A stretch of 64,000 nt of DNA from a virus (lineage: Duplodnaviria; Heunggongvirae; Uroviricota; Caudoviricetes): positions 24,956 to 88,955 of the IMG/VR virus record IMGVR_UViG_3300049014_000001; one strand, 5' to 3'. Positions 6,774 to 63,735 of the stretch are shown here, piece after piece. Within the stretch, counting starts at the first letter, position 1. Each line of letters opens with the position of its first letter. The notes under the pieces were generated by a model that was not told the DNA's origin, searched no databases, and saw only the letters and a list, made by a program, of their open reading frames with translations. Position numbers and translations under genes: made by a program.

Positions 6774-6779
6774 ATTGTT

Positions 6780-8189: not shown

Positions 8190-8192
8190 TGG

Positions 8193-8531
8193 TTAAACTT
8201 TCTGAATTGTAGTCATGTCCAGTCGTGGGCCAGTAGGCTTCGTATTGCCTGTTGCTGGTACGAGAGGTGTCTTAGGGCCAGTAGCCTTGATTTCTGCGAT
8301 CTGGCGAGTCAGCTCATCCTTGTTGATGGCTTCACTAACGGCAATCTTGTAGTCGATGAGAATGTCTGCACACTTCAATCGTTCCTTCAAGCCTACCTTC
8401 TCATTGCGCATCGTCTCAGCAAGCAGATCAACCGCTTCTGGCGTAACGCTATCTAGTTGTTTCAAAAGGTCAGTAAGCTCATGCTTTCGCTTGATGAACA
8501 TCTGACCTGCTTTCAGTGCTACTACTGACAT
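8193..8531 (-). CDS. Hypothetical protein (start re-set to MSVVALKAGQ with GGAG RBS)
   Basis: Track ORF; the internal ATG at 8529-8531 has an RBS 9 nt upstream. Confidence 0.45.
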   Translation of the reverse strand: MSVVALKAGQMFIKRKHELTDLLKQLDSVTPEAVDLLAETMRNEKVGLKERLKCADILIDYKIAVSEAINKDELTRQIAEIKATGPKTPLVPATGNTKPTGPRLDMTTIQKV

Positions 8532-8820
8532 TGGGTACTCCGTGAAATACTTCGTATCATACACTACTTACCTAATTTTGTCAACTATACGCAACTGTCT
8601 TATATAACTAAGTAATATAACTATGTACACTTACTATATACTATAACATATAATTGTAATATACATAAGTAGTTTATTATTAAATTATCGATTGACTCTT
8701 CCCTTACGGGAGAGTCTTTTAATTTTATTGTTAACTATACCTTAAGTATTATATACTCCCTCACTCGCTGCGCTCGTTCGGTCGTAAGTATATAGCACTA
8801 ACTAGCTTTTGTCAAGTGTT

Positions 8821-27820: not shown

Positions 27821-27821
27821 G

Positions 27822-28184
27822 ATGTACTATTCTTTAGACTTTCTGAGAAAAGTAAAAGCAGGACTTGAACAAATTCGTAACCCGGCTGCTAGGATGAATT
27901 GCACAGGCATTTGTTCTACTCTGGGAGACAGGATGGAATATGAGTACCCAAAAGAACGTAATAACTGGCTAAAGGGTAAGTTTATTACGTGGGACGAATT
28001 TAGCGGGGATGAAGACTACCCTGTAAAATCTGAATGCATCATGTCTCCAGCCAGCAAGTACGACACCTGCTTTGATATGTGGAATAACGATACGACGTAT
28101 GGCCGTGCACGTCTTCGTTTGCTGGAATATCTGATTGAACAAGTAGATGCTGATATCAAAGAAGCAGAGGTACAACGATGGTAG
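27822..28184 (+). CDS. Hypothetical protein
   Basis: 120-aa track ORF. Confidence 0.45.
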   Translation: MYYSLDFLRKVKAGLEQIRNPAARMNCTGICSTLGDRMEYEYPKERNNWLKGKFITWDEFSGDEDYPVKSECIMSPASKYDTCFDMWNNDTTYGRARLRLLEYLIEQVDADIKEAEVQRW

Positions 28185-28405
28185 TAGAAAAACTTACAGG
28201 CCGAACCATGCATCGCTTGCACAGGACACTCTTCGGAAAGAACCTACTGGTGCTACAAGTAGAAGTGCATCGTACTGGAACATATCATTGCCCTGATCCG
28301 CAAGACTGGGGCATGTCGTGGGACGTTGATGAAAAGTTCTGGCGAGATGCGACAGTTACAGACCTTCAAGACATCTGTTGCCGAACATCAAGCCTTGACA
28401 AATAG
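28178..28405 (+). CDS. Hypothetical protein
   Basis: 75-aa track ORF. Confidence 0.35.
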   Translation: MVVEKLTGRTMHRLHRTLFGKNLLVLQVEVHRTGTYHCPDPQDWGMSWDVDEKFWRDATVTDLQDICCRTSSLDK

Positions 28406-28423
28406 ATAGGTAAGTAGTAAGAT
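28395..28423 (+). promoter_or_regulatory. Promoter TTGACA-17-TAAGAT
   Basis: ttgacaaatagataggtaagtagtaagat followed by UTR CAACCAAACAAGGAGAGAACAATG. Confidence 0.5.
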
Positions 28424-28456
28424 AGCGTTTCTTTACAACCAAACAAGGAGAGAACA

Positions 28457-29116
28457 ATGACTGAACAAGTTTTTAAGGTAGGACAAAAAGTGAAGATCGT
28501 AGCGGCGGGTAGCGGTTGCCATCCACGAGACATCGGACAAACTGTGACCATCACTGGTATCAAGGCATACGGTGACGAAATGGGTGTGGAATACGATTGT
28601 AGAAACCTGTATGTTGAACAACTATCCTCTTCAGGCCGTTACGTAGCATCCGTACGGATGTTTGAACCAATCAAGGCTAACCTGAGCTTGCCTGTGTTCA
28701 CGGCTGAAGGCACTCCAGTGGAAATTATCACCGTATCTGGCCGTGACAAGAAGTTCCCAGTGCTGGCATACGAAGGTAAGGCTAAGCTGCCTTCGAAATA
28801 TACGCTGGAAGGCATCAGCAAGAGTGGTGAAGCTCGTCGCAACCTGACCAACGTCCAAGTGACAGATGAGCCTTCTGAGTACAAGGAAGAAGCTGTTGAG
28901 GAAGTAGTGCTGTATGCCAATCTGTACGACGATTCGGAGCGTGGCCTTCGTCGTCTTGATCTTGGCAACGAGTTGTACGAGTCCGTAAATGCAGCCACTG
29001 AAAGCTACAAGGAAGGTCGCATCGAGAACAAGAAACACCCTAAGCGTATCGGTGTGGCAAAGGTAACTCTGGTGAAGGGCAAACTGCCTTCCCGTTTCAA
29101 CAAGGAGGCTAACTAA
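28457..29116 (+). CDS. Hypothetical protein
   Basis: 219-aa track ORF with canonical UTR. Confidence 0.5.
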   Translation: MTEQVFKVGQKVKIVAAGSGCHPRDIGQTVTITGIKAYGDEMGVEYDCRNLYVEQLSSSGRYVASVRMFEPIKANLSLPVFTAEGTPVEIITVSGRDKKFPVLAYEGKAKLPSKYTLEGISKSGEARRNLTNVQVTDEPSEYKEEAVEEVVLYANLYDDSERGLRRLDLGNELYESVNAATESYKEGRIENKKHPKRIGVAKVTLVKGKLPSRFNKEAN

Positions 29117-30270
29117 TGGCTGAAATCAAACGTAAGATGGCGTCTGTACGCCGTATTGACAAGCTGGAAGCTATTCCCGGTGCAGACAAGATCGAAACCG
29201 CATGGATTGGTGGTTGGCCTGTCGTCGTGAAGAAAGGTGAATTCGCTCAAGGTGATCTGGCAGTGTACTTCGAAATCGATTCGTGGGTTCCGAACAAGGT
29301 TGCTCCGTTCCTGACCAAGGAAGGCTATGCCCCGAAGGAATTCAACGGTGTGCAAGGTGAACGCCTGAAGACTATCAAGCTGCGTAAGCAACTGTCACAA
29401 GGTCTGCTGCTGCCTCTGCATACTCTCCCAGCTAGTGTCGGCCCAAATTGCGACGAAGGTGAGGATGTCACAGAGGCTCTTGGTGTGCAGAAGTGGGAGC
29501 AGGAAGAAAAGACTCCTAACATGCCTCAGAGCCAGAAGACCCGTTCGTTCCCGTATTTCATCCGTAAGACGGATCAAGAACGTGCTCAGAACTACGGTCA
29601 CATGATTGCACAAAATCTGGACACTGAGTTTGAAGTGACCGTGAAGAAGGATGGTTCCAGCATCACCGTGTTCCGTGTGAACCCAAGTAGCCCGTATTAC
29701 GAAGATGCTAAACTGATGGTAAAGGGCAAGAAGACCTTCTGGGAACGGGTTGTAGCGTTCTTCAAGCGTGAACAAGACAAGCCAGTGTACGGCATTTGCT
29801 CTCGTAACGTTCTGCTGCCGTTCGAAGGCGATAGTAACTTCCACAAGGCTGCTAAGAAGCTGCTGCCATTCATGGAAGACTTTAATGAAGGCTCCGTAGC
29901 TATCCAAGCTGAGCTGGTGGCACCTGACATTCAAGGCAACTACGAGAAGGTAAGTGGTGTTGAAGTTCACATCTTTGATGTGTTCGACATTGATAAGCAA
30001 GAGTACAAAACTCCACGTGAGCGTACCAGCTTCCTTGGTGTGATGTTTGCACCTAGCTACGTACCACACGCTACCATCGTAGATAAAGGTACACTGCGTA
30101 ACATCCTGCAACTGAAGGAAGGTGAAGACTTCATGGAAAAGCTGCTTACCTACGCTTCCGGCGAAGGTGATAACGAAGGCGTCATGCGTGAAGGTGTGGT
30201 GTTCAAGGCAATGGACAAAGACTTTTCGTTCAAGGTAGTATCGAACGAATACCTGCTGAAGAAAGGCTAA
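29116..30270 (+). CDS. RNA-ligase-like nucleotidyltransferase (KxDG; Rnl family candidate)
   Basis: 384 aa; motif VKKDGSSITVF; similar in size to T4 RnlA; distinct from the DNA ligase at 26441. Confidence 0.55.
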   Translation: MAEIKRKMASVRRIDKLEAIPGADKIETAWIGGWPVVVKKGEFAQGDLAVYFEIDSWVPNKVAPFLTKEGYAPKEFNGVQGERLKTIKLRKQLSQGLLLPLHTLPASVGPNCDEGEDVTEALGVQKWEQEEKTPNMPQSQKTRSFPYFIRKTDQERAQNYGHMIAQNLDTEFEVTVKKDGSSITVFRVNPSSPYYEDAKLMVKGKKTFWERVVAFFKREQDKPVYGICSRNVLLPFEGDSNFHKAAKKLLPFMEDFNEGSVAIQAELVAPDIQGNYEKVSGVEVHIFDVFDIDKQEYKTPRERTSFLGVMFAPSYVPHATIVDKGTLRNILQLKEGEDFMEKLLTYASGEGDNEGVMREGVVFKAMDKDFSFKVVSNEYLLKKG

Positions 30271-51117: not shown

Positions 51118-52167
51118 ATGATGCAAAAAGCAAGAATTATGACTCCTACTGACTCTTATGTCACAGTCTACCCGGAGTTTATCAAGCTGGCTGATACCCA
51201 GTTTGAGGATTGCCGCTGGACTCACAAAGAGATTGCGGTAGAGAAGGATAAGCAAGACATGATGGTGAACGTGAACGATGCTGCACGTCATGCCATCACA
51301 ACCGGCCTGAAACTGTTCACTCGTTATGAGATGTTCGCCGGTATCGAATATTGGAATGGGAGAGTGCTAAAAGCCTTCCCACGTCCTGAAGTACAACGTA
51401 TGGCTACCGTCTTCGGTGCATTTGAGCTGCAAGTACACGCTCCGTTCTACAACAAGCTGAACGAAGTGTTGGGCCTTGATACAGATGAATTCTACACTTC
51501 GTACGTGAACGATCCTGTACTGAACGAACGTGTCAAGTTCTTGGACAAAGCTGTAGATAGTAAAGATGATTTGCTGAGCATCGCTGTGTTCTCCATGATG
51601 GAAGGCGCTGTGCTGTTCTCCAACTTCGCACTGTTCAAGAGCTTCCAAAGCAACGGCAACAACAAGATCGGTAACACCGTTCGTGGTATCGACCAATCCG
51701 TAGTTGATGAAGGTCTGCATCAGATTGGTGGTGCTACGCTGTTCCGTCGAGCGATTGAAGAACTTAAAGAGATTATGTCTCCAGAAAACTTCAAGCGTAT
51801 GTGGAAGAGTCTGTGCAATAAGATTCGTCGCGCTGGCAAGAAGCTGGCTGAACACGAGTTCCGTATCACGGACATGCTGATGTCAAAGGGCGACATTGGT
51901 ACTGGCATTACTGCCGAGAGCATGAAGCAATTCGTCATGAGCCGTATCAACATCTGCTTAAACGATCTGGGCGTACCTGTGTTGTACACCAAGAAGCAAA
52001 TTGGAGCCAATCCGATTGCTGGATGGTTCTACGGTGGTGTTCAGAAGTTCCAGATGAATGACTTCTTCGTAGGCAAAGGACGCGAGTACACAACAACATG
52101 GAATGAACGAGCCTTCACATGGTTCGTAGAGGATAAGAAACCGGAGACAACTAATGAGCAAGTATGA
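51118..52167 (+). CDS. nrdB: Ribonucleotide reductase class I small subunit
   Basis: 349 aa; ferritin-like motifs SMMEGAVLFSNFALFKSF and RGIDQSVVDEGLHQ. Confidence 0.7.
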   Translation: MMQKARIMTPTDSYVTVYPEFIKLADTQFEDCRWTHKEIAVEKDKQDMMVNVNDAARHAITTGLKLFTRYEMFAGIEYWNGRVLKAFPRPEVQRMATVFGAFELQVHAPFYNKLNEVLGLDTDEFYTSYVNDPVLNERVKFLDKAVDSKDDLLSIAVFSMMEGAVLFSNFALFKSFQSNGNNKIGNTVRGIDQSVVDEGLHQIGGATLFRRAIEELKEIMSPENFKRMWKSLCNKIRRAGKKLAEHEFRITDMLMSKGDIGTGITAESMKQFVMSRINICLNDLGVPVLYTKKQIGANPIAGWFYGGVQKFQMNDFFVGKGREYTTTWNERAFTWFVEDKKPETTNEQV

Positions 52168-53905
52168 ACAACTGAGTGAAGCACGTAAGAAAGGTCAAGC
52201 AGAAGGCACTGTCCCTGAGTGGATGCCTACGGCTGGCTATCAGATGTTCATGGAACGGTATCTGTACGAAGCAGAGAATCCACGCGAACAGTTCATCCGT
52301 ATTGCTCAAACTGCTGCTAAGCATGCTCCAGACGCATATTTGCCGCATGATGACATTGCAGCCGATGTTGCAGCAGGCAATATGATGCTTTCACCGAAGT
52401 CATACTGGACTGATAAGTTCTTCGAAATCCTGTGGAAGGGCTGGATGGCTTGCTCTACTCCAGTGTTGGCGAACATGGGTACAGATCGTGGCCTTCCTGT
52501 GTCGTGTGCTGGATCGGAGATGGACAACTCTATCTTCGGCTTCTACGATAACCTGAAGGAAATGGCTCTGCTGTCTAAGCATGGCTTCGGTACGGCTACT
52601 GACCTGTCACCTGTCCAACCTCGTGGCTCTCGTATGCGTACTGGTGGCAAGGCTAACGGTGTGATGCCTGTAATTGAAGACCACATCATCATGTCTCGTA
52701 AAGTAAGTCAGGGCAGTGCTCGACGTGGTGCATGGGCCGCTTACCTTAATGTGATGCATGGAGACTTCTGGGAAGTGATTGACTACCTTGAACGCCACGA
52801 TGATGACTTCAACATCGGCTGGATCGTTCACGATGACTTCATTGCCAAGCTAAACAAAGGTAATGTAGAAGCACACAAGCGTTTCCAACGCATGATGCGT
52901 GTGAAGATGCAAACTGGTAAGGGTTACTTCTTCTTCATCGACAAGGTGAATCGTAACCGTCCACAGATGTACAAAGACTTGGGCCTGATGGTCAAGGCTT
53001 CTCAGCTCTGCACGGAAATCTTCCTGCACAGCGATGCCACCAAGTACACCTACACCTGTGTGCTAGCTTGGATGAACGCTTCGAAGTACGACGAGTACAA
53101 AGACACTGATGCTGTTCAAGTAGCCACTGTGTTCCTTGATTGCGTTGTGTCAGAGTTCCTTGAACGTGCCCGTAAGATTCCGGGACTTGAAAAGGCTGTA
53201 GCGTCTACTGAAGCTGGTAGGGCAATCGGTCTTGGTGCTGGTGGTCTTCACACCTATATGCAAGAACACATGATGCCTGTAGACTCGTTGGACGCTTACA
53301 TGTTCAACGCAGAGTTCTTCAAGCATCTGAATGCTGAATCGCTGAAGGCTTCTCAATGGCTTGCAAAAGAACTCGGTGAACCTGAGTGGTGCAAAGGCTA
53401 TGGTGTACGCTTTACACACCGTATGGCTGTAGCTCCTACCAAGTCCACTGCATTGATTTACGGTGGCATTTCGGAAGGTCGTGGACTTGACACTGCGATG
53501 AGCTTTACGCAGAAGACATCTGCCGGTGAAGTAGATCGTGTGAACCCTCCACTGCTTGCTCTGATTAAGCGCAAAGGATTGAACGTTGAGAAGTGCATCA
53601 AGGACGTGGTTGAAGGCTACGGATCGGTGCAGCACGTAGACTGGCTGAATGACGAAGAGAAGCTTGTCTTCCGTACTGGCTTTGAATACGATCAACGTGT
53701 TGTGCTTCGTCTTGCTATCGCTGCTCAGAAAGAGATTGACCAAGGCCAGAGCATCAACGTGTACATTGCCAAGGGCACTACCGAACAAGAGATTGCTGAT
53801 CTTCACAAGTTCGCATTCGAACAAGAGATGATTCACAGCTTGTACTACATCTACTCCAGCCGTGCAGTTATCTCGGCAAAGAGTGAGTGTGTAGCTTGCC
53901 AATGA
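52154..53905 (+). CDS. nrdA: Ribonucleotide reductase class I large subunit (short form)
   Basis: 583 aa; VLANMGT, active-site region ASQLCTEIFL (NxCxE), C-terminal Cys pair ECVACQ. Confidence 0.75.
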   Translation: MSKYEQLSEARKKGQAEGTVPEWMPTAGYQMFMERYLYEAENPREQFIRIAQTAAKHAPDAYLPHDDIAADVAAGNMMLSPKSYWTDKFFEILWKGWMACSTPVLANMGTDRGLPVSCAGSEMDNSIFGFYDNLKEMALLSKHGFGTATDLSPVQPRGSRMRTGGKANGVMPVIEDHIIMSRKVSQGSARRGAWAAYLNVMHGDFWEVIDYLERHDDDFNIGWIVHDDFIAKLNKGNVEAHKRFQRMMRVKMQTGKGYFFFIDKVNRNRPQMYKDLGLMVKASQLCTEIFLHSDATKYTYTCVLAWMNASKYDEYKDTDAVQVATVFLDCVVSEFLERARKIPGLEKAVASTEAGRAIGLGAGGLHTYMQEHMMPVDSLDAYMFNAEFFKHLNAESLKASQWLAKELGEPEWCKGYGVRFTHRMAVAPTKSTALIYGGISEGRGLDTAMSFTQKTSAGEVDRVNPPLLALIKRKGLNVEKCIKDVVEGYGSVQHVDWLNDEEKLVFRTGFEYDQRVVLRLAIAAQKEIDQGQSINVYIAKGTTEQEIADLHKFAFEQEMIHSLYYIYSSRAVISAKSECVACQ

Positions 53906-53906: not shown

Positions 53907-54194
53907 ATGCAAGTGTACGTTGTGGAGTTTGAGAAGCATCCCGGCTTGTTCAAGATTGGACTGAGCAAAGATGTGAAGCAAAGGCTTCCGCAACTCAAAG
54001 TCTCCCACGGTGAACCACTGAACATGAAACGGTGGACTGTGGGAGCTAGGTACAGGATAATTGAGAGGGCTTTGCATAAAGCCTTTTCGTCCTACCGTAA
54101 GCCTGTACCCGGAGAGGGAGGCACAGAATTTTTTGATGTGGTCGTAAGACCGAACGTAGAAAGGATATTGGACGATGAAGTTGACTGTGTATAG
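53907..54194 (+). CDS. T5orf172 / GIY-YIG-like domain small protein
   Basis: MQVYVVEFEKHPGLFKIGLSKDVKQRLPQLK...TEFF; inserted between nrdA and nrdH. Confidence 0.5.
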   Translation: MQVYVVEFEKHPGLFKIGLSKDVKQRLPQLKVSHGEPLNMKRWTVGARYRIIERALHKAFSSYRKPVPGEGGTEFFDVVVRPNVERILDDEVDCV

Positions 54195-54946: not shown

Positions 54947-55105
54947 ATGAAGTTCTTTTGCATGCTAGGAGTGCATGATTGGGAATATGGGCCTGTGTAT
55001 ATGGGAACTCCCAACGGCTACGCAGCTAAGTACTATGTACAAAACAAAGTTTGCCAGTGCTGCAACAAAACAGAAGTCGTATTTTCCGCAGGAGGCTCAA
55101 TGTGA
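54947..55105 (+). CDS. Cys-rich small protein (52 aa)
   Basis: ORF below threshold; RBS GGAGGACACTGAATG. Confidence 0.3.
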   Translation: MKFFCMLGVHDWEYGPVYMGTPNGYAAKYYVQNKVCQCCNKTEVVFSAGGSM

Positions 55106-55395
55106 ATATCGGATTTGACTACGATGATACGTTCACTCGTGATCCTGCTGGATGGTCGCAGATTATCAATTTCCTTACCAAGCGAGGGCACAAAGTGTAC
55201 ATCGTTACATGGCGCACCACAGCAGAGTGCATGCGTGTCCACGCAGAGATGCAGTATTGGAAAGTAGATATCGAAGGTATCTTTGCAACGCATAGGACAG
55301 CTAAAGAGCCTTACATGAACCAGCGTGGTATCATCATTGACGTTTGGGTTGATGACAATCCTCGTGCGGTAATTAAAGACATGGAGAAGTTGTAA
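55102..55395 (+). CDS. HAD-superfamily phosphatase (5'(3')-deoxyribonucleotidase-like), GTG start
   Basis: Motif I GFDYDDTF (DxDxT) and motif IV DVWVDDNP; RBS GGAGG before GTG. Confidence 0.6.
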   Translation: MNIGFDYDDTFTRDPAGWSQIINFLTKRGHKVYIVTWRTTAECMRVHAEMQYWKVDIEGIFATHRTAKEPYMNQRGIIIDVWVDDNPRAVIKDMEKL

Positions 55396-55811
55396 TGAAC
55401 AAGATTGATTCGTTTAGCGGAGGCTATCGCTTCCTGTCTAACTTCTGGTACAACCCAGATGGCTATACCAATGAGCATCGCTTCCAAGCAGCTAAGGCTA
55501 AACATAAGGAACACTACGACTGGATTATGGAATCCAAGTCTCCCGGTGAGGCCAAACGTCGTGGTCGGCAAGTGCCAATGCGTGAAGACTGGAATGACAT
55601 TCGCATCGGCGTTATGCTGGAACTTACTACTGAAAAGTTTAAAGACCCAGCGCTACGTGCTCAGTTGCTTGCTACTGGGGATGCTGAACTCATCGAAGGC
55701 AATACATGGGGTGATCGGTTCTGGGGCGTCTGCGACGGTGAAGGTCAGAACTGGCTTGGCCAATGCCTGATGAACGTCCGTGAGGGCATTCGAAATGTGC
55801 AAGGTAGTTAA
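55395..55811 (+). CDS. NADAR-domain protein (YbiA-like N-glycosidase acting on ADP-ribose derivatives)
   Basis: FLSNFWYNP...EHRFQAAKAK...W(x)I...GDRFWG signature of DUF1768/NADAR. Confidence 0.65.
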   Translation: MNKIDSFSGGYRFLSNFWYNPDGYTNEHRFQAAKAKHKEHYDWIMESKSPGEAKRRGRQVPMREDWNDIRIGVMLELTTEKFKDPALRAQLLATGDAELIEGNTWGDRFWGVCDGEGQNWLGQCLMNVREGIRNVQGS

Positions 55812-56079
55812 CAAACGCTACCAAGCATATGATGTCTACATAGGAAGGGGAAGCCCTCTTGGTAATCCTTTTCCTATTGACGAGAACACAGGACAAACAC
55901 GAAGCGTCGTTATCGAGAAGTACAGACGATGGTTGTGGGAAGAGATGAAGGCTGGTAGAATAACTAAGGAGTACTTGCTATCGTTGGACGGGAAGGCTCT
56001 TGGATGTTTTTGCGCACCTTCACCTTGTCACGGTGATGTTATTGTACAAGCGGTAAATTGGATTAAGGAAAACAAATAA
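55795..56079 (+). CDS. DUF4326-domain protein (frequent NADAR partner)
   Basis: YDVYIGRGSPLGNPF...KYRRWL...GKALGCFCAPSPCHGDV. Confidence 0.55.
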   Translation: MCKVVNKRYQAYDVYIGRGSPLGNPFPIDENTGQTRSVVIEKYRRWLWEEMKAGRITKEYLLSLDGKALGCFCAPSPCHGDVIVQAVNWIKENK

Positions 56080-56294
56080 TGGATATTTATGCACAAAAAG
56101 GAAGTAAGGTACGCTACCTAGGAACTGGGGGATATCAGGGTGAACGTGATCGCATTGAAGCTCTTGGGGTGAAGAAGGGAGACATCCTAACCGTTCGTTA
56201 CACTAATGTTGACAACTGGCATACGGATGCCTACTTCTTTGAAATCGAAAGAGGCCACAACTCAGTCATGTTTGAGGATGTTGAAAATGACTAA
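56079..56294 (+). CDS. Hypothetical protein
   Basis: 71-aa track ORF. Confidence 0.4.
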   Translation: MDIYAQKGSKVRYLGTGGYQGERDRIEALGVKKGDILTVRYTNVDNWHTDAYFFEIERGHNSVMFEDVEND

Positions 56295-56351
56295 AGAGCA
56301 GCATGAACAGGCTCGTAGAGAGCTTGGATGGCCCATTAAAGGGAGAACACG

Positions 56352-56828
56352 GTGAAGCTAGTAATCGCAGGTAGTCGTTCCATCAAGGACTATCATATAA
56401 CTCGCCAAGCTTTCCTTGAAAGTGGTCTATGGGATAAGTACAAAAAGAAGCTTGAAATTATTTCTGGGGAAGCAGAAGGCCCAGATAAGCATGGTGAAAT
56501 CATCGCTGAAAAAGCTGGACTGAAGCTCCACAGGAAGCCCGCTGACTGGGGCAACGTCAAAGCGAAGGGTGCTGTAATTCGTCATAACAGCCGTGGAGCT
56601 TACAACGCTCTTGCTGGACACTGGCGTAACGAAGAGATGGCTCACATGGCAGACTGTGCTCTAATCGTCTGGGATGGCAAATCTACTGGCAGCTTGGATA
56701 TGCTTCATCGGATGATCGCTCTGGAGAAGCGTGCTATCCTGTACCCTCTTCGTATCAGCGCTGATGCTCTGGACTCGCTGCAAGATAAGTGCGAAATTAT
56801 TTTTCCAAACCAGTTGACAAGCACGTAA
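56352..56828 (+). CDS. SLOG-superfamily (DUF2493 / DprA-LOG-like Rossmann) protein
   Basis: MKLVIAGSRS...IISGEAEGPDKHGEIIAEKAGL matches the GxAxGxD nucleotide-binding SLOG pattern. Confidence 0.5.
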   Translation: MKLVIAGSRSIKDYHITRQAFLESGLWDKYKKKLEIISGEAEGPDKHGEIIAEKAGLKLHRKPADWGNVKAKGAVIRHNSRGAYNALAGHWRNEEMAHMADCALIVWDGKSTGSLDMLHRMIALEKRAILYPLRISADALDSLQDKCEIIFPNQLTST

Positions 56829-56843
56829 GTAGTGCTGCATAAT
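56814..56843 (+). promoter_or_regulatory. Promoter TTGACA-18-CATAAT
   Basis: cagttgacaagcacgtaagtagtgctgcataat plus UTR CAACCAAGGAGAATAGAAATG. Confidence 0.45.
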
Positions 56844-56876
56844 GCTTGTCATTGAACACAACCAAGGAGAATAGAA

Positions 56877-57254
56877 ATGAACTACAAAGAACTCGTCGTA
56901 GAACTGAAGGAAGCTAAGTCCCTGATCGACTCCCCTGAGAAATGGACTCAACATAAATTCGGTAGGGATGCTTGGGGGCATGGCCTGAGTACTAATGAGT
57001 GGAGCGATACTCCGCCAGCATGCATGTGCTCCGTTGGTGCTATCTACGAAGTAAATCGTCGTAAAGACCCTACTGTGTGCTTGTACAAAGTAAGCTCCAC
57101 CAGAAGCGACAATGCTGCCAGCTTCCTTACTCGTGTCGCTGGGGAAGTTATTACCCGCTTCAATGATAGCCACTCTCACGCTGAAGTAATGGCTCTCTGG
57201 GACAAAGCAATTGCTAAGGCGGAAAAACTGGCAGCAGAAGGAGAAGAAAAATGA
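56877..57254 (+). CDS. Unknown-function protein, paralogue A of a tandem pair
   Basis: Shares SPxKW(x)Q, C(M/F)CS(V/L)GA and FNDSxxH(x)EV...DKAIA(x)AE blocks with the next gene. Confidence 0.55.
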   Translation: MNYKELVVELKEAKSLIDSPEKWTQHKFGRDAWGHGLSTNEWSDTPPACMCSVGAIYEVNRRKDPTVCLYKVSSTRSDNAASFLTRVAGEVITRFNDSHSHAEVMALWDKAIAKAEKLAAEGEEK

Positions 57255-57571
57255 AGGTAAGCCAACAACTGAAAGCAGCAAAAGCCATCATTGCCTCTCC
57301 TAGCAAGTGGCTTCAAGGGGCGTATGCTAAGGATGCAGATGGCTTTTACATGCGTGGCAACAATACCAATGCAGTTTGCTTCTGCTCGTTGGGAGCTTTG
57401 CAAGCTGTGAATCAAACCGACAGTGATGCTCCATCTCAGCCAGCTATCGCCGTTTTGAAGCAGTTCATGGGAGGGGATGTTCCAGAATTCAATGATAGCG
57501 CCACTCACGAGCAAGTGTTGGAGGCATTTGATAAAGCTATCGCTGCTGCGGAGGAACAGGAGGCAGCGTGA
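57251..57571 (+). CDS. Unknown-function protein, paralogue B of a tandem pair
   Basis: Same conserved blocks as 56877-57254. Confidence 0.55.
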   Translation: MKVSQQLKAAKAIIASPSKWLQGAYAKDADGFYMRGNNTNAVCFCSLGALQAVNQTDSDAPSQPAIAVLKQFMGGDVPEFNDSATHEQVLEAFDKAIAAAEEQEAA

Positions 57572-57739
57572 CAATTCATCAAGATTGGCAAGAGTACGCT
57601 ACGTACTTAGACAGCTTCAAGAAGGAACGTAGCGAACGCTGCCAATGTGACGTAGAATTCGGGACATGTCCCGGCCCAACCAACTGTCCATATTCGGACG
57701 TAGAAGGAGAAGATATTGAAAGTAACCCAGAGTCGCAAT
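57568..57739 (+). CDS. Cys-rich small protein (GTG start, 57 aa)
   Basis: Strong RBS AGGAGGCAGC before GTG; CQCD...CPGPTNCP. Confidence 0.3.
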
Positions 57740-57919
57740 AAACGTGAAGGTAAGTACATCTCCCGTTGGTGCTATAACCCCGGCATCAAAGGCTTCAACA
57801 AGAAGACTAATCAATACACCTACAATATTCGCGCTGGTGCTCACTTTGATCTAGTAAAGGTGAAGCACGCCCAGCTTGGTATTGTTCTGTTACGTAAAGT
57901 ACGAAAGGAATTCGAATGA
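57716..57919 (+). CDS. Small basic protein (TTG start)
   Basis: Track ORF; RBS GAAGGAGAAG. Confidence 0.4.
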   Translation: MKVTQSRNKREGKYISRWCYNPGIKGFNKKTNQYTYNIRAGAHFDLVKVKHAQLGIVLLRKVRKEFE

Positions 57920-58734
57920 GCATCCGTATCGTAGGCTATCCAGAAGCCTTTACCAAAACAACTTTCCCCGGTGGAGAGTCGTGCATCCGTGTCACCATGA
58001 ACACTCCAATGGAGCCTGACCTGACGCTGGAACTGGCATTCGAAAACAACGGTGATCTATTCGACTTGGCCTTGCTGGCTGACGCACTTCGACGTAAGTT
58101 CCCAGAGAAGAAGCTGAAACTCTGGATGGGTTACACTCCTTATGCACGTCAGGATCGCGTATGTAACGAAGGTGAAAGCCTGTCCATTAAAGTTGTGGCA
58201 GATTTCATCAACTCGCTGAAGTTCGAAGCTGTGTGTATCATCGACCCTCACTCGGATGTCACTCCTGCGCTGTTTGAACGTGCTATGGTGATCGAACAGA
58301 AGTGGCTGTGTACTCGTCCACAGTTGCGTACGAATCCTAGTAACACTATCATCGTAGCTCCTGATGCCGGTGCAGCAAAGAAAGCTCGTGCATTCGCTCA
58401 ACTCGGTGGCTTCGCTGGGCTGGTACAAGCTGAGAAAGTTCGTGAGCTTTCTACTGGTAACATTCTGGAAACTCGTGTACAATCTGAACACATTGGTGAT
58501 AAGGACTTCCTCATTGTGGATGACATCTGCGATGGTGGCCGTACCTTCACCGAATTGGCAAAGGTGCTTCGTCCTCTTACCAATGGCAAGATTAAGCTGT
58601 TCGTAACACACGGTATCTTCTCGGCGGGTGAAAAAGTATTTGACAACCTGATTGATGAAGTGTACACTGCTAATCCTGTCGGGGCTACTGGACGAGCAGC
58701 CGTAGAAAGTGGTATCAAAGTAGTCCGTATCTAA
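57916..58734 (+). CDS. Ribose-phosphate pyrophosphokinase-family enzyme (Prs-like; candidate ADPR-pyrophosphate synthetase Adps)
   Basis: GYTPYARQDR, IIDPHSD, IVAPDAGAAKKARAFA, PRTase motif FLIVDDICDGGRT, VTHGIFSAGE. Confidence 0.75.
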   Translation: MSIRIVGYPEAFTKTTFPGGESCIRVTMNTPMEPDLTLELAFENNGDLFDLALLADALRRKFPEKKLKLWMGYTPYARQDRVCNEGESLSIKVVADFINSLKFEAVCIIDPHSDVTPALFERAMVIEQKWLCTRPQLRTNPSNTIIVAPDAGAAKKARAFAQLGGFAGLVQAEKVRELSTGNILETRVQSEHIGDKDFLIVDDICDGGRTFTELAKVLRPLTNGKIKLFVTHGIFSAGEKVFDNLIDEVYTANPVGATGRAAVESGIKVVRI

Positions 58735-58770
58735 CGCTACGTATGTAGCAAACTAACCAAGGAGAATTAA

Positions 58771-59157
58771 ATGAAAAAGCTTTTCGCTCTGTTGCTGGTG
58801 GCTGTATCTCTCGTTGCTTGCGGCCCTGATCGTCCACCTGTCCCGGTGATTAACCAAGAAGGCCAACCTGTGGCTCAACAAGCTCAAGGCGGTGGTGATG
58901 GCTTTGACACTGGTGACGCCGCTGTAGGCGCTCTGGCCGGTGCTGCTGCTGGTTACATGATGGGCAAGTCGTCCAACAGCCAGCCACAACGCACCGTGAT
59001 CGTGGACAATCGTAGTCCATACTACGGCCCAAGCTACCGCAACTACGGTAGCCCGTATGGTCGTAAATCTGTGACCACTACTACGACTACTACCAAGCGC
59101 AGTGCATTCGGTGGCCGTACCACTACCACCACTCGCAGCGTAACTCGTCGTCGTTAA
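58771..59157 (+). CDS. Glycine-zipper lipoprotein (Pcp/SlyB-like)
   Basis: Lipobox LVAC, GALAGAAAGYMMG glycine zipper, Thr-rich tail. Confidence 0.55.
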   Translation: MKKLFALLLVAVSLVACGPDRPPVPVINQEGQPVAQQAQGGGDGFDTGDAAVGALAGAAAGYMMGKSSNSQPQRTVIVDNRSPYYGPSYRNYGSPYGRKSVTTTTTTTKRSAFGGRTTTTTRSVTRRR

Positions 59158-59170
59158 TTAAGGAGAGCAA

Positions 59171-60829
59171 ATGAAAATCAAACCACACCTGATTCTGGAT
59201 TCGTACAAGCTGGGCCACATCGACCAATACCCTGAAGGTACTCAGTACGTGTACTCCAACCTGACCGCTCGTTCTGCTGCTCACGCTAAGATGGGCAACA
59301 TGTTCGACAACAAGGTGGTGTTCTTCGGTCTGCAAGGTTTCATTCAAGAATTCCTGATCGAAGCATGGAACGAACACTTCTTCGCTCGTCCTAAAGACGA
59401 AGTGATTGTGGAGTACAAGCGCCGTTGTGATAACTTCCTCGGCCCTGATGCTGTTCGTACTGACCACATCGCAGCACTGCATGATCTTGGCTACCTGCCT
59501 ATCTTCATCAAAGCTCTGCCTGAAGGCTCCCGTGTGAACATCAAGGTTCCGTTCCTGACGATTCGTAACACGCTGCCTCAGTTCTACTGGCTGACGAACT
59601 ATCTGGAAACCGTGCTGTCGGATGAACTGTGGCAAATGTGTACCGTAGCTACCATTACCTACGAGTACCGTCGAATCCTGAACAAATATGTCGAACTGAC
59701 TGGCTCGTCCAAAGAGTTCGCTGACTGGCAGATTCATGACTTCTCGATGCGTGGTATGGCTGGCTGGCATGCTTCGGCTAAGGCCGGTGCTGCTCACTTG
59801 CTGTCGTCCCGTGGCACTGATACTCTGCCAGCAGTGGATTATTTGGAACAGTACTACGGTGCTGATGTTACGAAGGAACTGGTTGCTGGCTCCGTACCAG
59901 CTACGGAACACTCCGTAATGTGCATGGGTGGCATGGGTGAAGCAGAATTGGAAACCTTCCGTCGTCTGATTACCAAGACCTACCCACAAGGTATCGTGTC
60001 TATCGTGTCGGATACGTGGGACTTCTGGACTGTCATCACCAAGTACACGGTGGCACTGAAGGAAGAAATCTTGAACCGTAAGGAGAACGCTCTAGGCATG
60101 GCTAAAGTTGTGTTCCGTCCTGACTCCGGTGATCCTGTGAAGATCGTTGCTGGTCTGCGTGTGAAGGATATTTCTGATGCACGTTTCAATACAGATGCCG
60201 ATGGCAAAGTGTTCGTCAACGTTGACGATGTACTTAAACTTGTTGAGAGCTACGATGCGGTACGTATCTTCGGTAAAGTGTTTGAATTCGATGCAGCTCG
60301 TGGCTGGGGAATCTTCCTCGGTCGAGAAGTAGCTGACCACGAAGTGAAAGGTGCTGTGGAATGCCTGTGGGATGTGTTCGGTGGTGACATCACTGAGAAG
60401 GGCTACAAGACGCTGAACCAGCGTGTGGGCCTGATCTACGGGGATAGCATCACTCTGGAACGTGCAGAACAAATCCTGCAACGCCTGAGGGATAAAGGCT
60501 TCTCGGCCGGTAACATCGTGTTCGGTGTAGGCTCGTTCACCTACCAGTACATGACGCGTGACACCTTCGGCATGGCTGTAAAGGCTACGTGGGGTCAAGT
60601 GAACGATGAAGCTCGTGACATTCAGAAAGACCCTGCTACTGGCGATGGTATGAAGAAGTCTGCTACCGGCCTGTTGCGTGTTGAAAAAGTGGATGGCAAC
60701 TACTACCTGTTCGACCGTCAGAATATCGTAGAAGAGATGTACGGTGAACTTAAAGAAGTATTCCTTGACGGTAAGGCATACAACACTCAGAGCTTTGCTC
60801 AGATCGTAGAACGTCTGAAGAAAGACTAA
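59171..60829 (+). CDS. Nicotinamide phosphoribosyltransferase-family enzyme (Nampt/NadV or Namat)
   Basis: 552 aa; N-terminus ILDSYKLGHIDQYPEGTQYVYSNLTARS matches the Nampt start (DSYK...QYP); type II PRTase length. Confidence 0.7.
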   Translation: MKIKPHLILDSYKLGHIDQYPEGTQYVYSNLTARSAAHAKMGNMFDNKVVFFGLQGFIQEFLIEAWNEHFFARPKDEVIVEYKRRCDNFLGPDAVRTDHIAALHDLGYLPIFIKALPEGSRVNIKVPFLTIRNTLPQFYWLTNYLETVLSDELWQMCTVATITYEYRRILNKYVELTGSSKEFADWQIHDFSMRGMAGWHASAKAGAAHLLSSRGTDTLPAVDYLEQYYGADVTKELVAGSVPATEHSVMCMGGMGEAELETFRRLITKTYPQGIVSIVSDTWDFWTVITKYTVALKEEILNRKENALGMAKVVFRPDSGDPVKIVAGLRVKDISDARFNTDADGKVFVNVDDVLKLVESYDAVRIFGKVFEFDAARGWGIFLGREVADHEVKGAVECLWDVFGGDITEKGYKTLNQRVGLIYGDSITLERAEQILQRLRDKGFSAGNIVFGVGSFTYQYMTRDTFGMAVKATWGQVNDEARDIQKDPATGDGMKKSATGLLRVEKVDGNYYLFDRQNIVEEMYGELKEVFLDGKAYNTQSFAQIVERLKKD

Positions 60830-60837
60830 GAGGAAGT

Positions 60838-61113
60838 ATGACTCTCGACCGCTTCGGAGAAGAGCTGTACATCGGTGATATTGTGGTGTACGCAGACACA
60901 AATGTAAGCGGTGATGGTGTGATTTCGTTGGATGTCTACAACGTGATTGAGCTGATTGATGTAAATACATGCATAGGTCAGCTCATGAACGGAAGGTATG
61001 CAGGTAACACTTTCTACCTAACAGAGACAACCAACCGTTGCGCTTACATGTATGAATCCAATCCTGAGCCTGAAGAAGGTGATGAGGATTTGGTAAAACC
61101 AATTTTTAACTAA
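60838..61113 (+). CDS. Hypothetical protein
   Basis: 91-aa track ORF. Confidence 0.45.
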   Translation: MTLDRFGEELYIGDIVVYADTNVSGDGVISLDVYNVIELIDVNTCIGQLMNGRYAGNTFYLTETTNRCAYMYESNPEPEEGDEDLVKPIFN

Positions 61114-61126
61114 GGAGAAATAACAA

Positions 61127-62473
61127 ATGGCAAAACAATCGAAAAACTACATCGGCTTCGTGAACGATCACTCCGGTTCCATGTCCTCGCTGGCTGTTGC
61201 TGCTGCCCGTGACTACAACACGAACATCGCTGCAATCAAGGATGCTGCAACTCGTGAAATGCTGGATACTGTTGTCAGCGTCGTAGGTATCGGTCTGGGT
61301 GCAGGCGTTGAACGTCAAGTAGTCGTATCCAATCCTCACGTTCTGAAGCCTATCGCTAGCTGGCCTACTCCGGGTGGCACCCCACTGTACGATGGTATTG
61401 GCGACATGATCGACCTGCTGCAATCGCTGCCAGATTCGAATGAGTCTCACGTTTCGTTCCTGATTATGATTACCACTGACGGTCAGGAAGAACACTCCCG
61501 GAAATATGATAAGGTAGCCCTGCGTAACAAAATCGAAGCCCTTAACAAGGATGGTCGTTGGACTCTGGTGTTCCGTGTTCCTCGTGGTAAAGGCTACACT
61601 GTGACGGGTCTTGGCGTTCCATCTGGTAACATCCAAGAATGGGATACCACGACTAAAGGCATGGAGCAATCCACTGTACTGAATACGCAGGCTGTTGATA
61701 CCTACTTCGCTACTCGTTCGGCTGGTGGCAAGTCGTCTAACGTGTTCTACACCAACACTGCTTCTGTGAACACTTCGGCTCTGGTGGACATCAGCGCAAA
61801 GACTTCGCTGTACGTGGTTGACCAATTCCATAATGGTGCTCAGATTCGTGACTTCATCCTGTCGAAACGCACTGAATACCTGATTGGTGCAGCGTTCTAC
61901 CAGCTCACCAAAACTGAGCCTAAAGTGGCCCCTTCGAAGCTGATTCTGATCCGCGAGAAGACTACTGGCAAAGTGTACGCTGGCCCTGACGCCCGTAAGA
62001 TGCTGGGTCTGGATACCGTTAACAACGCTCGTATCCACCCTAACCACGGCAACGGCGAGTACGACATCTTCATCCAGTCGGAGTCGGTGAATCGTAAGCT
62101 GGTGGCTGGTACTGGCGTTCTGTACTGGGCCGAGAAAGGTCGTCCTGTAACTCAAGCCGATCTGGAACGCTACGCTGGGCAGAACAAAGCTGCTGCTCCT
62201 GCTGTGCCTGTGCTGGCTCAAGCTCCTGCTACTGGCAAACCTACGCCTAGCCCGGTAGCTGCTAAGAAGATCGCTGCCAAGCCTGTCAACTCGACTAAGC
62301 CAGTAGCAATCATTCCTAGCGACGGTGGCCGTGTGCGTTACCACATTGCTCCGGCAAACGCTGCGTTCTACGCCACTCGTGACATGGCCCGTGCTCAAGC
62401 ACTGGTGCAAGGCAAGAAGTCGTATGATGCAGGCCCAACCGCTGGTAAAGGCTTCCGCTTCTACGTAGCATAA
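61127..62473 (+). CDS. von Willebrand factor A (vWA) domain protein with Pro/Ala-rich linker
   Basis: MIDAS-type DHSGSM ... TPLYDG ... ITTDGQE; C-terminal AAPAVPVLAQAPATGKPTPSP low-complexity region. Confidence 0.6.
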   Translation: MAKQSKNYIGFVNDHSGSMSSLAVAAARDYNTNIAAIKDAATREMLDTVVSVVGIGLGAGVERQVVVSNPHVLKPIASWPTPGGTPLYDGIGDMIDLLQSLPDSNESHVSFLIMITTDGQEEHSRKYDKVALRNKIEALNKDGRWTLVFRVPRGKGYTVTGLGVPSGNIQEWDTTTKGMEQSTVLNTQAVDTYFATRSAGGKSSNVFYTNTASVNTSALVDISAKTSLYVVDQFHNGAQIRDFILSKRTEYLIGAAFYQLTKTEPKVAPSKLILIREKTTGKVYAGPDARKMLGLDTVNNARIHPNHGNGEYDIFIQSESVNRKLVAGTGVLYWAEKGRPVTQADLERYAGQNKAAAPAVPVLAQAPATGKPTPSPVAAKKIAAKPVNSTKPVAIIPSDGGRVRYHIAPANAAFYATRDMARAQALVQGKKSYDAGPTAGKGFRFYVA

Positions 62474-62510
62474 TTCGCTTGACAACGTTGATAGGTAGTG
62501 TACAATAGCT
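62469..62510 (+). promoter_or_regulatory. Promoter TTGACA-16-TACAAT with 12-bp inverted-repeat operator bracketing the -10 box
   Basis: gttgataggtag (62477-62488) and ctgcctatcaac (62499-62510) are inverted repeats (11 of 12) flanking TACAAT. Confidence 0.45.
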
Positions 62511-62534
62511 GCCTATCAACATTGAGAGGATGAG

Positions 62535-62702
62535 ATGATTAAATTAACATTGGTAAGCATTAGGCGTGGTACGGTACGTAAGAGTTTCTTCTTACCTTGT
62601 CTGTACCGTGATGGAAAGGCAATCATCTCTCTTGAACAGTATGGAGAGGTAATCCGCAAGTCAGGATTTCCTGATGGAACACAGATTAGTTTTTGTACCT
62701 AG
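62535..62702 (+). CDS. Hypothetical small protein (55 aa)
   Basis: ORF below threshold, first after the operator-bearing promoter. Confidence 0.3.
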   Translation: MIKLTLVSIRRGTVRKSFFLPCLYRDGKAIISLEQYGEVIRKSGFPDGTQISFCT

Positions 62703-62710
62703 GAGGAACA

Positions 62711-63010
62711 ATGATCGAGACTAAAGAAGCAATTGCAAACTGGGGTTGGGATGCTTATGACCAAATCCTGTATGAACTGGACGGAGCTGAAATACTGTTC
62801 GCAGAATATCGCTACGAATTCTATGAAGGTAACGCTCTGGTTGTATGGCTGAAAGATGGCAAACTGTATGAAGCTCATGGAAGCCATTGCTCCTGCTACG
62901 GTCTGGAAGGTCAGTGGAGCGCTGAAGAAACTTGTATTGAGGCTTTGGAGCTGCGTTCGTACATGACCCAAGAAGGCTTGCAACGAATTCGTGAGGCCGT
63001 AAATGGCTAA
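62711..63010 (+). CDS. Hypothetical protein
   Basis: Track ORF; start re-set to MIETKEA after RBS TAGGAGGAACAATG. Confidence 0.45.
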   Translation: MIETKEAIANWGWDAYDQILYELDGAEILFAEYRYEFYEGNALVVWLKDGKLYEAHGSHCSCYGLEGQWSAEETCIEALELRSYMTQEGLQRIREAVNG

Positions 63011-63084
63011 GAAGTGCAGTGATAACTGCCCCTACTGTGTCAAGATGGGCAACGTAAAGAAACTAAAGAAGGAGAGCAAGTAAC

Positions 63085-63561
63085 ATGACATTGAAGATCG
63101 AAACCGGCGACGTGTTCAACGAGCTGTATTTCAAAGCAGAGAAGGGTGAGCCTGTCATCTTCGTCCACGGCTGCAATGCTAGAGGTGTGATGGGAAGTGG
63201 CGTAGCAGCTCTCGTCAAGAAGCTCTATCCGTTTGCCTACGATGCGTACAAGAAGGAGTACAACGACTACGGTTTCGACCTTGGCTTTGCTCAGTTCTGC
63301 GACGACACATCTACGTCTGTCACTGTGGTGAATGCCATCACCCAAAAGAACTTCGGGAAAGATGGCAAGCTGTACGTAGATTACGACGCTGTAATCAAAG
63401 CTCTTGAGCTGGTAGCTAGCGTAGCTAAGACTCGCAACCATCCTGTCTACCTGCCTATGATTGGCGGTGGCCTTGGTGGTGGAGATGTAAAACGACTCAC
63501 AGCGATTTTCCAAGCTGTGTTCCACGATGTAGATGCAACCCTGTACTTGAAGGAGGATTAA
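63085..63561 (+). CDS. Macro-domain protein (ADP-ribose binding / hydrolase)
   Basis: FVHGCNARGVMGSGVAALVKKLYP ... MIGGGLGGG matches macro-domain ADP-ribose pocket motifs. Confidence 0.65.
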   Translation: MTLKIETGDVFNELYFKAEKGEPVIFVHGCNARGVMGSGVAALVKKLYPFAYDAYKKEYNDYGFDLGFAQFCDDTSTSVTVVNAITQKNFGKDGKLYVDYDAVIKALELVASVAKTRNHPVYLPMIGGGLGGGDVKRLTAIFQAVFHDVDATLYLKED

Positions 63562-63735
63562 ATGTTTCAAATTGTCGTGTTCGGAATCTTGGTAGCTGCT
63601 ATTGGTGGCTACATTGCAAACATCGTCAAACTGATTGGCCTGATTGGGCATGATTTCGGTCTGTTGGCAGTGCTGCGTATTGTCGGTGTTCTCACCGGCC
63701 CATTCGGTAGCATCATGGGCTTCATCCCTAACTGA
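63562..63735 (+). CDS. Small membrane protein (57 aa)
   Basis: RBS GAAGGAGGATTAAATG; two hydrophobic helices. Confidence 0.4.
   Translation: MFQIVVFGILVAAIGGYIANIVKLIGLIGHDFGLLAVLRIVGVLTGPFGSIMGFIPN

Follow-up and report, generated by a model that had tools for sequence, protein, structure and literature searches.

A candidate counter-defence island in an uncultured phage joins a predicted NAD+-rebuilding pathway to NADAR, DUF4326 and macro domain genes

Phages have several published ways of countering host immunity that consumes NAD+ or writes ADP-ribose (ADPR), and here we compare them with one island of genes on the + strand of a viral DNA, at positions 55,395 to 63,561 of what we call the window. 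(The window is the whole stretch that was analysed, 64,000 nucleotides of the Caudoviricetes record IMGVR_UViG_3300049014_000001 from IMG/VR, positions 24,956 to 88,955.) The island encodes a NADAR protein, a DUF4326 protein, a SLOG-like protein, homologs of Prs and Nampt, and a macro domain protein. The NARP1 pathway rebuilds NAD+ after an attack, and two enzymes that feed it have been published, Adpp (10.64898/2026.01.28.702374) and RyDEP (PMC13232231). In the variant called NARP1-AP, the macro protein Adpp dephosphorylates ADPR-1''-phosphate so that NARP1 beats RES-type NAD+ degraders (aRES) (Osterman et al. 2026 preprint, 10.64898/2026.01.28.702374). Adpp was characterised from Vibrio phage Gary, which has an Adps-phosphatase-Namat operon (10.64898/2026.01.28.702374). 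As for ADP-ribosylation of DNA, an orphan phage NADAR protein known as AdfN has been established experimentally as an anti-DarTG1 enzyme (Johannesman et al. 2025, PMC11825919): the T5-like BASEL phages Bas32 and Bas33 have in common a NADAR that neutralises DarT1 and has no such effect on DarT2, and that rescues three phages when the defence is DarTG1, but not when it is DarTG2 (PMC11825919). Finally, neighbourhoods of Macro, NADAR, SLOG and DUF4326 domains beside NadV-type salvage genes, which is the exact domain set of our island, were described by Iyer, Burroughs, Anand, de Souza and Aravind (2022, PMC9503650).

Our best explanation is that the island is a counter-defence against host immunity that consumes NAD+ or writes ADP-ribose, in an uncultured phage of about 89 kb, and we put the probability of this at roughly 0.55. 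Going by homology and motifs, the Prs homolog (Adps) and the Nampt homolog (Namat) would together be NARP1 and would rebuild NAD+ from ADPR and nicotinamide. Given its relatives and its context, the macro protein would act as Adpp: it would take the ADPR-1''-phosphate that RES-domain NAD+ degraders produce and remove the 1''-phosphate, which would give ADPR for Adps. The pathway would then be NARP1-AP with the phosphatase gene moved four open reading frames (ORFs) downstream. The NADAR protein would act as AdfN, cutting the N-glycosidic bond between ADP-ribose and guanine on DNA modified by DarT1-type toxins, which would restore replication and free ADPR. The DUF4326 and SLOG proteins would be co-inherited accessory proteins of the NADAR unit. 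An earlier note on this DNA had suggested that released ADPR feeds the Prs-like and Nampt-like pair, and this fits the published feeders of NARP1; we would, however, expect DNA adducts to contribute little of this ADPR next to what NADases produce. The main genes are:

55395-55811, + strand: NADAR protein, 138 amino acids (PF08719, phrog_1017)
55795-56079, + strand: DUF4326 protein, 94 amino acids from the ATG at 55795 or 99 from the GTG at 55780 (PF14216)
56352-56828, + strand: SLOG/YspA-like (DprA-like Rossmannoid) protein, 158 amino acids (PF10686, E = 1.1e-5; phrog_289, E = 4e-20)
57916-58734, + strand: Adps-like Prs homolog, 272 amino acids (phrog_619, E = 6e-82)
59171-60829, + strand: Namat-type Nampt homolog, 552 amino acids (phrog_448, E = 1e-197)
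63085-63561, + strand: macro domain protein of the HxCN/Gln type, 158 amino acids (PF01661, phrog_335)

These profile matches bear out what the earlier note had read from the letters alone, namely a YbiA-like NADAR gene, a DUF4326 gene and a separate macro gene in the same island as NAD-rebuilding enzymes. Residues 452-462 of the Namat protein read GSFTYQYMTRD, which fits the consensus of the selectivity clamp (GSX-phi-X-phi-X-phi-TRD, with aromatic X) that separates Namat, which uses ADPR pyrophosphate (ADPR-PP), from Nampt, which uses phosphoribosyl pyrophosphate (PRPP) (PMC12774641). Along the 309 positions of the TIGR01251 profile, the match of the Adps protein stops at 273 and leaves out about 36 at the C-terminal end, and loss of the C-terminal PRPS module (alpha11-alpha12) is the signature of Adps (PMC13586617). 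A gap of 436 nt, which holds one small ORF, separates the two genes. Adps is predicted to be the first NARP1 enzyme, which converts ADPR plus ATP to ADPR-PP, and Namat is predicted to be the second, which makes NAD+ from ADPR-PP and nicotinamide.

The case for the macro protein as part of this pathway comes from its relatives and its context. Of six metagenomic macro relatives that we sampled (35-45% identity), two sit between Adps and Namat genes, on contigs that we label L012 and L017. The window Adps is 49% identical to the Adps of these Adps-macro-Namat operons, the window Namat is 56-63% identical to their Namats (56% for L012), and the window macro is 43-46% identical to the macro protein of L012 (P0201) and 40% identical to that of L017 (P0203). 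In other words, the closest relatives of all three proteins outside the phage's own lineage are in the same two operons, while the Namats of L006 and L008, which are otherwise the closest phage relatives of the window, are only 38-39% identical to the window's. Because of this pattern, the data suggest that the Adps, Namat and macro genes travelled together. Also, Rheinheimera phage Barba19A encodes macro, Prs and Nampt proteins in a row. Vibrio phage Gary is a Thalassavirus, and we used its congener Direpillow8 as a proxy for the Adpp of Gary. Direpillow8 encodes Prs (gp174), gp175 and Nampt (gp176), and gp175 is a 158-amino-acid macro protein with HQCN, GQ and IGCGLAGG, which are the same HxCN, Gln and IGxGLxGG motifs that are found in the window macro. 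(We had considered gp80-82 of Direpillow8 as the NARP1 operon, but gp82 looks NrdG-like and the real operon is gp174-176.)

Compared with NARP1-AP, then, the window has the same three protein families in one locus, and its macro protein shares the HxCN, Gln and Gly-loop motifs of the Thalassavirus protein. The arrangement is different: the window macro gene is displaced four ORFs (2.26 kb) downstream of Namat, and a lipoprotein-like gene splits Adps from Namat. NARP1-AP was defined by a macro gene within two genes of the Adps/Namat pair (10.64898/2026.01.28.702374). In L008, the macro gene is the second gene after Namat and so lies within that distance, while in L006, as in the window, extra ORFs are inserted between Namat and macro. 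If an Adpp-type macro gene can become separated from its NARP1 operon in this way, then a rule of "within two genes" undercounts NARP1-AP. L017 and another contig, L011, are related (4264-8536 and 3916-5084, respectively), and in both of them a PhoH gene is followed by the macro gene; an HNH endonuclease gene interrupts the Namat gene of L017.

We also examined the macro domain itself. Its Pfam match only just clears the threshold (PF01661, 22.4 bits, with the cut-off at 22.0), but it matches phrog_335 (1.6e-35), and its sequence matches in the PDB are BT1257, SCO6735 and the DarG macrodomains (8e-10 to 7e-4). We tried to use structure to separate Adpp, Poa1p, DarG and SCO6735, but the AF2 model (pLDDT 95.7) fits BT1257, DarG, TARG1, Poa1p and SCO6735 more or less equally well (TM 0.73-0.82), so the fold does not decide the function. 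The active site is more informative. At the position of the catalytic lysine (K80 of DarG, K84 of TARG1), HMMER alignments place Q87 of the window macro, and this glutamine is invariant in 56 homologs. The window macro keeps N31 and H28 (in an HGCN motif) and both Gly-rich loops, and its active site has the arrangement of SCO6735 and BT1257.

These ALC1-like macrodomains (PMC9411070) are the best PDB matches by both sequence and structure, and the equivalents of His24, Asn27 and Gln85 of SCO6735 are conserved as H28, N31 and Q87. On the other hand, Val25 and Lys34 of SCO6735 are replaced by Gly29 and Ser38, and the window protein is phage-encoded and linked to NARP1. With DarG and with AdfM (PMC13309987) it shares the macro fold (TM 0.77-0.81), phrog_335 and a weak match to the NCBIfam model for DarG (NF048014): its 34.5 bits, a score that an Adpp-like protein also reaches, are below the cut-off of 250. 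It differs from them in that the catalytic lysine of their PTK motif is absent (Gln87) and in having HxCN instead of an xVN motif; AdfM (PhiKZ gp104) keeps the lysine, in PTKDNW, and lacks the histidine. So at its active site the window macro is not DarG/AdfM-like, as judged from aligned residues. The earlier note had called it DarG-type; the invariant Q87 speaks against that, and the nearest relatives and context point to Adpp. We put the odds that it is an Adpp-like phosphatase at about even and give a much smaller chance to a DNA or protein glycohydrolase; other or dual roles take up the rest.

The NADAR protein is recognised clearly (PF08719, E = 2.4e-24, 86.9 bits against a gathering cut-off of 35.1; phrog_1017, E = 3.9e-41). 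Its best sequence match in the PDB is E. coli YbiA (2B3W, 1e-14), followed by the Phytophthora NADAR 8BAU (8e-7). In an alignment with 46 homologs, E27, K34, E101, D107 and W110 are invariant. E27 and K34 form an E-x6-K pair within the motif EHRFQAAK; the corresponding catalytic pairs are E43/K50 in PnNADAR, E88/K95 in E. coli C7 and E36/K43 in T4, and these are the residues that were mutated in T4 AdfN, the E. coli C7 NADAR and PnNADAR. The last-strand residue is E101 (LIEGNTWGDRFWG), followed by D107 and W110, and the three correspond to E125, D130 and W133 of PnNADAR. At this position of the last strand, YbiA family members have Glu, the DarT1-linked BC4488 family has Asp and T4 gp30.3 has His, and therefore the window NADAR belongs to the YbiA family rather than to the DarT1-linked or T4 types. 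It is a bare YbiA-type core: the DarT1-linked (DarG1) antitoxins have the last-strand Asp, a basic N-terminal extension and about 230 amino acids, and the window NADAR has none of these features. A DarG1 antitoxin is encoded next to a DarT1 ADP-ribosyltransferase (ART), but no ART domain was seen in the adjacent genes or in any of the approximately 60 window ORFs that were scanned. The earlier note had named loss of the acidic residues of NADAR or of the glycine motif of the macro domain as grounds for abandoning its proposal, and all of the NADAR residues listed above, as well as N31 and the Gly-rich loops of the macro domain, are kept.

The window NADAR is 48% identical (E = 2e-44) to Lindwurm_062, the NADAR of a T5-like phage. 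Lindwurm_062 is 100% identical to the NADAR of the BASEL phage HildyBeyeler and at least 95% identical to those in 96 T5-like records. From the naming of the BASEL phages, we presume that HildyBeyeler is Bas33, and the count of records with E. coli K-12 as the host is consistent with two BASEL phages. We take the T5-like NADAR of the Lindwurm_062 type to be the tested AdfN(Bas32), so that in our comparisons AdfN(Bas32) is represented by a proxy, the NADAR of a BASEL T5-like phage, and not by its own sequence. Both proteins are phage-encoded orphan single-domain NADARs (about 140-150 amino acids), and both conserve the E-x6-K motif and the acidic residue of the last strand. They differ in their surroundings: the window NADAR is coupled to DUF4326 (by overlapping genes, and by fusion in a relative) and to a SLOG gene and sits in an island with NARP1, whereas the T5-like locus has no DUF4326 or SLOG partners. 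Every NADAR subtype that has been tested removes ADP-ribose from guanine (guanine-ADPr) in vitro, and some also act on cytidine-ADPr and on guanosine-ADPr in RNA. The window NADAR is likely an active ADP-ribosyl N-glycohydrolase, and it is plausible that it has an anti-DarTG1 role, that is, that it works against DarT1-type defence in its host.

A number of observations weigh against a NARP1-AP and AdfN reading of the island. First, the macro gene begins 2.26 kb and four ORFs after Namat, outside the two-gene distance, and a promoter-like site (62479-62506) precedes the last three genes, so the macro gene may be on its own transcript. (In our scan for promoters and terminators, site counts were not above the shuffled expectation, so transcript boundaries are hints only.) Second, the Direpillow8 protein gp175 is only 28% identical to the window macro (E = 4e-6). 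Third, four of the six sampled distant macro relatives are not near NARP1, and L011 keeps the macro gene with no NARP1 genes in the approximately 7 kb that was inspected, while its relative L017 has Adps and Namat around the macro gene; because of these cases, it appears that the macro family also has roles that are independent of NARP1. Fourth, Adpp-like proteins share phrog_335 with AdfM, and membership in PHROG or NCBIfam families does not tell the Adpp-like from the AdfM/DarG proteins. Fifth, SCO6735 has a Gln-type site, and it clears thymidine-ADPr from DNA and protects cells against DarT (Hlousek-Kasun et al. 2022, PMC9411070). As for NADAR, E. coli YbiA and T4 gp30.3 hydrolyse guanine-ADPr in vitro, but they alone fail to rescue cells from DarT1, and the antitoxin activity of NADARs in vivo is not predictable from sequence.

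The DUF4326 protein also matches its family profile clearly (PF14216, E = 2.4e-24, 86.2 bits against a cut-off of 25). Its longest ORF starts at the GTG, and the gene callers on the source contig use the ATG, so that 17 nt are shared with the NADAR gene. The protein has a GRGSxxGNPF loop and, in C76-x-C78-x4-C83-H84, a cluster of Cys and His that also permits the reading C78-X5-H84; the rhodanese-phosphatase clade that was proposed for DUF4326 is defined by a rhodanese/PTP-like fold with a C-X5-R active-site loop. A near relative has a natural fusion of DUF4326 and NADAR (P0244, 235 amino acids), whose NADAR part is 63% identical to the window's. In other relatives, DUF4326 adjoins NADAR in either order (the order is reversed in L008), and an N4-like phage contig (L019, 8021-9321) encodes, in its early region, a 322-amino-acid NADAR protein directly followed by DUF4326. 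Viral fusions join DUF4326 to SLOG and NADAR domains. DUF4326 is fused or adjacent to NADAR in three contexts. In L019, there are no NARP1 genes within 9 kb of the NADAR-DUF4326 pair, which is about 7 kb from an Acb2/Tad1-like signal-sponge gene.

The earlier note had called DUF4326 the common partner of NADAR. This holds insofar as the two are fused or adjacent in these cases, but DUF4326 is found in far more phage records (2222, against 692 with a NADAR homolog, at E <= 1e-5), and it often occurs without NADAR, for example in L018 and in the nrdA.1/nrdA.2 region of T-even phages. In the Thalassavirus genomes, the two genes are far apart. The evidence favours a functional tie between DUF4326 and NADAR but speaks against an exclusive one. 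The nrdA.1/nrdA.2 region of T2, T4 and T6 (for example, LC348380.1, 137318-137578) encodes a DUF4326 homolog that is about 42% identical, which is why PHROG labels the family "NrdA-like". Our guess is that DUF4326 processes the phosphate or sugar end of a product that is derived from ADPr.

The clustering of genes from NADAR/DUF4326 to macro is not a chance juxtaposition, as the gene order recurs in relatives. The order RNR (ribonucleotide reductase), NADAR/DUF4326, SLOG, Adps, Namat, macro is found in two metagenomic relatives (L006 and L008). The window macro protein is also identical to one on an 89,049-bp contig from JGI metagenome 3300071358, where the gene order is the same. A megablast search of the 8.2-kb region against 50,697 phage records gave no matches, so this phage is not closely related to any deposited genome. 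The SLOG protein matches PF10686 below the gathering score, and its orthologs in L006 and L008, which are 60% identical, carry PF10686 matches; domains of this class are predicted to bind, or to act on, derivatives of nucleotides or of ADPr. In the approximately 60 window ORFs that were scanned, we found no ART, Nudix, Nmnat or RyR-domain gene.

What else could the island do? One alternative, which is close to what the earlier note proposed, is a dual anti-DarTG function: NADAR would erase guanine-ADPr, the mark of DarT1, from the phage DNA and the macro protein would erase thymidine-ADPr, the mark of DarT2. The evidence for the NADAR half is the same as for our best explanation. For the macro half, the protein matches DarG macrodomains by sequence (5M3I, 7e-7; 5M31, 7e-4) and by structure (TM as above), it shares the Gln85/Asn27/His24-type site of SCO6735, an enzyme that cleaves thymidine-ADPr, and the phage macro protein AdfM, which is also in phrog_335, is a proven anti-DarTG2 enzyme (PMC13309987). 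But the lysine of DarG, TARG1 and the PTK motif of AdfM is an invariant Gln in the window macro, the match to AdfM is a local one of just 28 residues, and there was no match to phrog_30914, which is enriched in AdfM. Furthermore, Lys34 of SCO6735, which is needed for its activity on DNA, becomes the near-invariant Ser38 (a mapping that is our own reading of the motif alignment), and the nearest macro relatives are embedded in NARP1 operons. We consider a dual function to be unlikely. The idea that the island erases ADP-ribose marks thus survives for NADAR, with its resemblance to the T5-like AdfN type, and probably not for the macro protein, whose substrate is likely a small molecule.

A second alternative extends the small-molecule idea to all four domains. 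Under the model of Iyer, Burroughs and Aravind, NADAR, DUF4326, SLOG and macro would turn soluble signals or toxins that are derived from NAD+ into ADPR for NARP1; the candidates are cyclic ADPR (cADPR) isomers, histidine-ADPR, ADPR-1''-phosphate, Appr>p and phosphorylated ADPR, and the island would be a multi-enzyme feeder module. These domains co-occur or are fused in DNA viruses, where NADAR adjoins NadV-type genes (PMC9503650), and three related phages have inherited all four together with NARP1. Adpp and RyDEP are precedents for feeders, and the L019 pair lies near a signal-sponge gene. The window NADAR also does without the basic N-terminal extension that was proposed to bind ssDNA in DarT1-linked NADARs, but the AdfN(Bas32) type is equally short and acts on DNA that was modified by DarT1. 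The activities of NADARs that have been tested were all on nucleic-acid bases or riboflavin intermediates, with none on a soluble immune signal, and DUF4326 mostly occurs without NADAR or NARP1 (as in the T-even nrdA.1/nrdA.2 region and L018). This model also seems improbable to us as an account of the whole island.

A narrower version is more speculative still. The NADAR-DUF4326(-SLOG) unit might be a third kind of NARP1 feeder, beside Adpp and RyDEP: a two-step enzyme pair, sometimes a single fused protein, that gives plain ADPR from a defence product. The inputs would be products of NAD+ with N-glycosidic bonds and/or phosphates, and candidates include canonical cADPR, histidine-ADPR, phospho-ADPR and ADP-ribosylated nucleotides. 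We regard this as a long shot. If true, it would give a first function to DUF4326, a family that is found in more than 2000 sequenced phage records.

Finally, it is very unlikely that these are mere housekeeping genes for nucleotide metabolism or RNA repair (NADAR as a YbiA-like N-glycosidase of riboflavin or nucleotide intermediates, DUF4326 as an NrdA.1-like accessory to RNR, and macro as a Poa1p-like enzyme for clearing ADPR-1''-phosphate): although the island directly follows nrdB, nrdA and glutaredoxin genes within a replication and nucleotide block that includes an RNA ligase, NADAR matches TIGR02464, the model for an N-glycosidase of riboflavin intermediates (at 64.6 bits, below the cut-off of 73.7), DUF4326 homologs occur in the T-even nrdA.1/nrdA.2 region, and some macro relatives are near RNA ligase or polynucleotide kinase (PNK) genes, NARP1 is established as counter-defence, the T5-like type of NADAR has proven anti-DarT1 activity, and neither riboflavin genes nor a Tpt1/KptA-type enzyme (a source of ADPR-1''-phosphate) turned up among the window ORFs that were scanned.

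Returning to the counter-defence reading, every idea in it has already been published (AdfN in 2025, AdfM in 2026, Adpp in the 2026 preprint, and the Macro/NADAR/SLOG/DUF4326 neighbourhood in 2022). What the locus would add is that it packs up to three published strategies into 8.5 kb, namely reconstitution of NAD+ by NARP1, the phosphatase extension against RES-type degraders, and an orphan NADAR against ADP-ribosylation of DNA, and that it extends the known host and phage range of NARP1, the Adpp-type phosphatase and the orphan NADAR. Its interest rests mainly on the displaced Adpp-like gene and on the uncharacterised DUF4326 partner. Because DUF4326 is translationally coupled here, and fused elsewhere, to an active-looking NADAR, it has a testable class of substrates, the derivatives of ADP-ribose, and as the family is present in the T-even model phages, testing is feasible there.

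The island is part of an unbroken run of genes on the + strand of the window (55051-63735), downstream of nrdB/nrdA (51118-53905) and a glutaredoxin gene. The 30 kb upstream of it is a block for replication and nucleotide metabolism, with DNA ligase, RNA ligase, ThyX, primase-helicase, UvrD, PolA and RNR. The other genes of the run are:

55051-55395, + strand: 114-amino-acid ORF with an HAD-like DxDxT motif, FDYDDT (phrog_4256, E = 5.7e-24; phrog_4919)
56079-56294, + strand: 71-amino-acid protein (phrog_8472; Phage_T4_Y07B by precomputed Pfam)
56877-57571, + strand: two tandem DUF6197 paralogues of 125 and 106 amino acids, between the SLOG gene and Adps (PF19698, E = 2.8e-10 and 3.3e-15)
58771-59157, + strand: lipoprotein-like ORF of 128 amino acids, which starts MKKLFALLLVAVSLVAC (sequence features)
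60838-63010, + strand: four ORFs of 91, 448, 55 and 105 amino acids (ORF list)
61127-62473, + strand: the 448-amino-acid protein among these, with a weakly vWA/cobaltochelatase-like N-terminus (phrog_26613)

The stop codon of the 114-amino-acid ORF overlaps the start codon of NADAR, and this ORF is also called as a gene on the source contig; searches of Pfam and the PDB gave no matches to it. The NADAR unit may begin with this ORF. The 448-amino-acid gene has a counterpart in L006 (53% identical) but none in L008. The lipoprotein-like protein between Adps and Namat combines a Cys-lipobox signal peptide with a Gly-zipper and a Thr-rich tail, and it is odd cargo for a cytoplasmic NAD+ pathway. 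In its place, L006 and L008 have small unrelated ORFs.

Among sequences labelled as phage, the best match of the Nampt-like protein is from "Acinetobacter phage MD-2021a" (L002, CAKLQF020000015.1, 7099-10316), which we rejected as phage context: it looks like a contig from a bacterial chromosome, with prs, a Nampt-like gene and nadM. Its Nampt-like protein is the best database match of the window Namat (55%) and has a Namat-type clamp, GSFTYNYLTRD, despite adjoining an NMN adenylyltransferase.

Elsewhere in the window, an ATP-dependent DNA ligase (26441-27820, + strand) lies near an RNA ligase with a PHA02142 OB domain (29116-30270, + strand), and RNA repair near 26441-30270 could make or use ADPr-phosphate by-products. 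Between nrdA and the glutaredoxin gene there is a small T5orf172/MUG113 (GIY-YIG-like) ORF (53907-54194, + strand), which overlaps the glutaredoxin gene by 20 nt and is possibly the remnant of a homing endonuclease.

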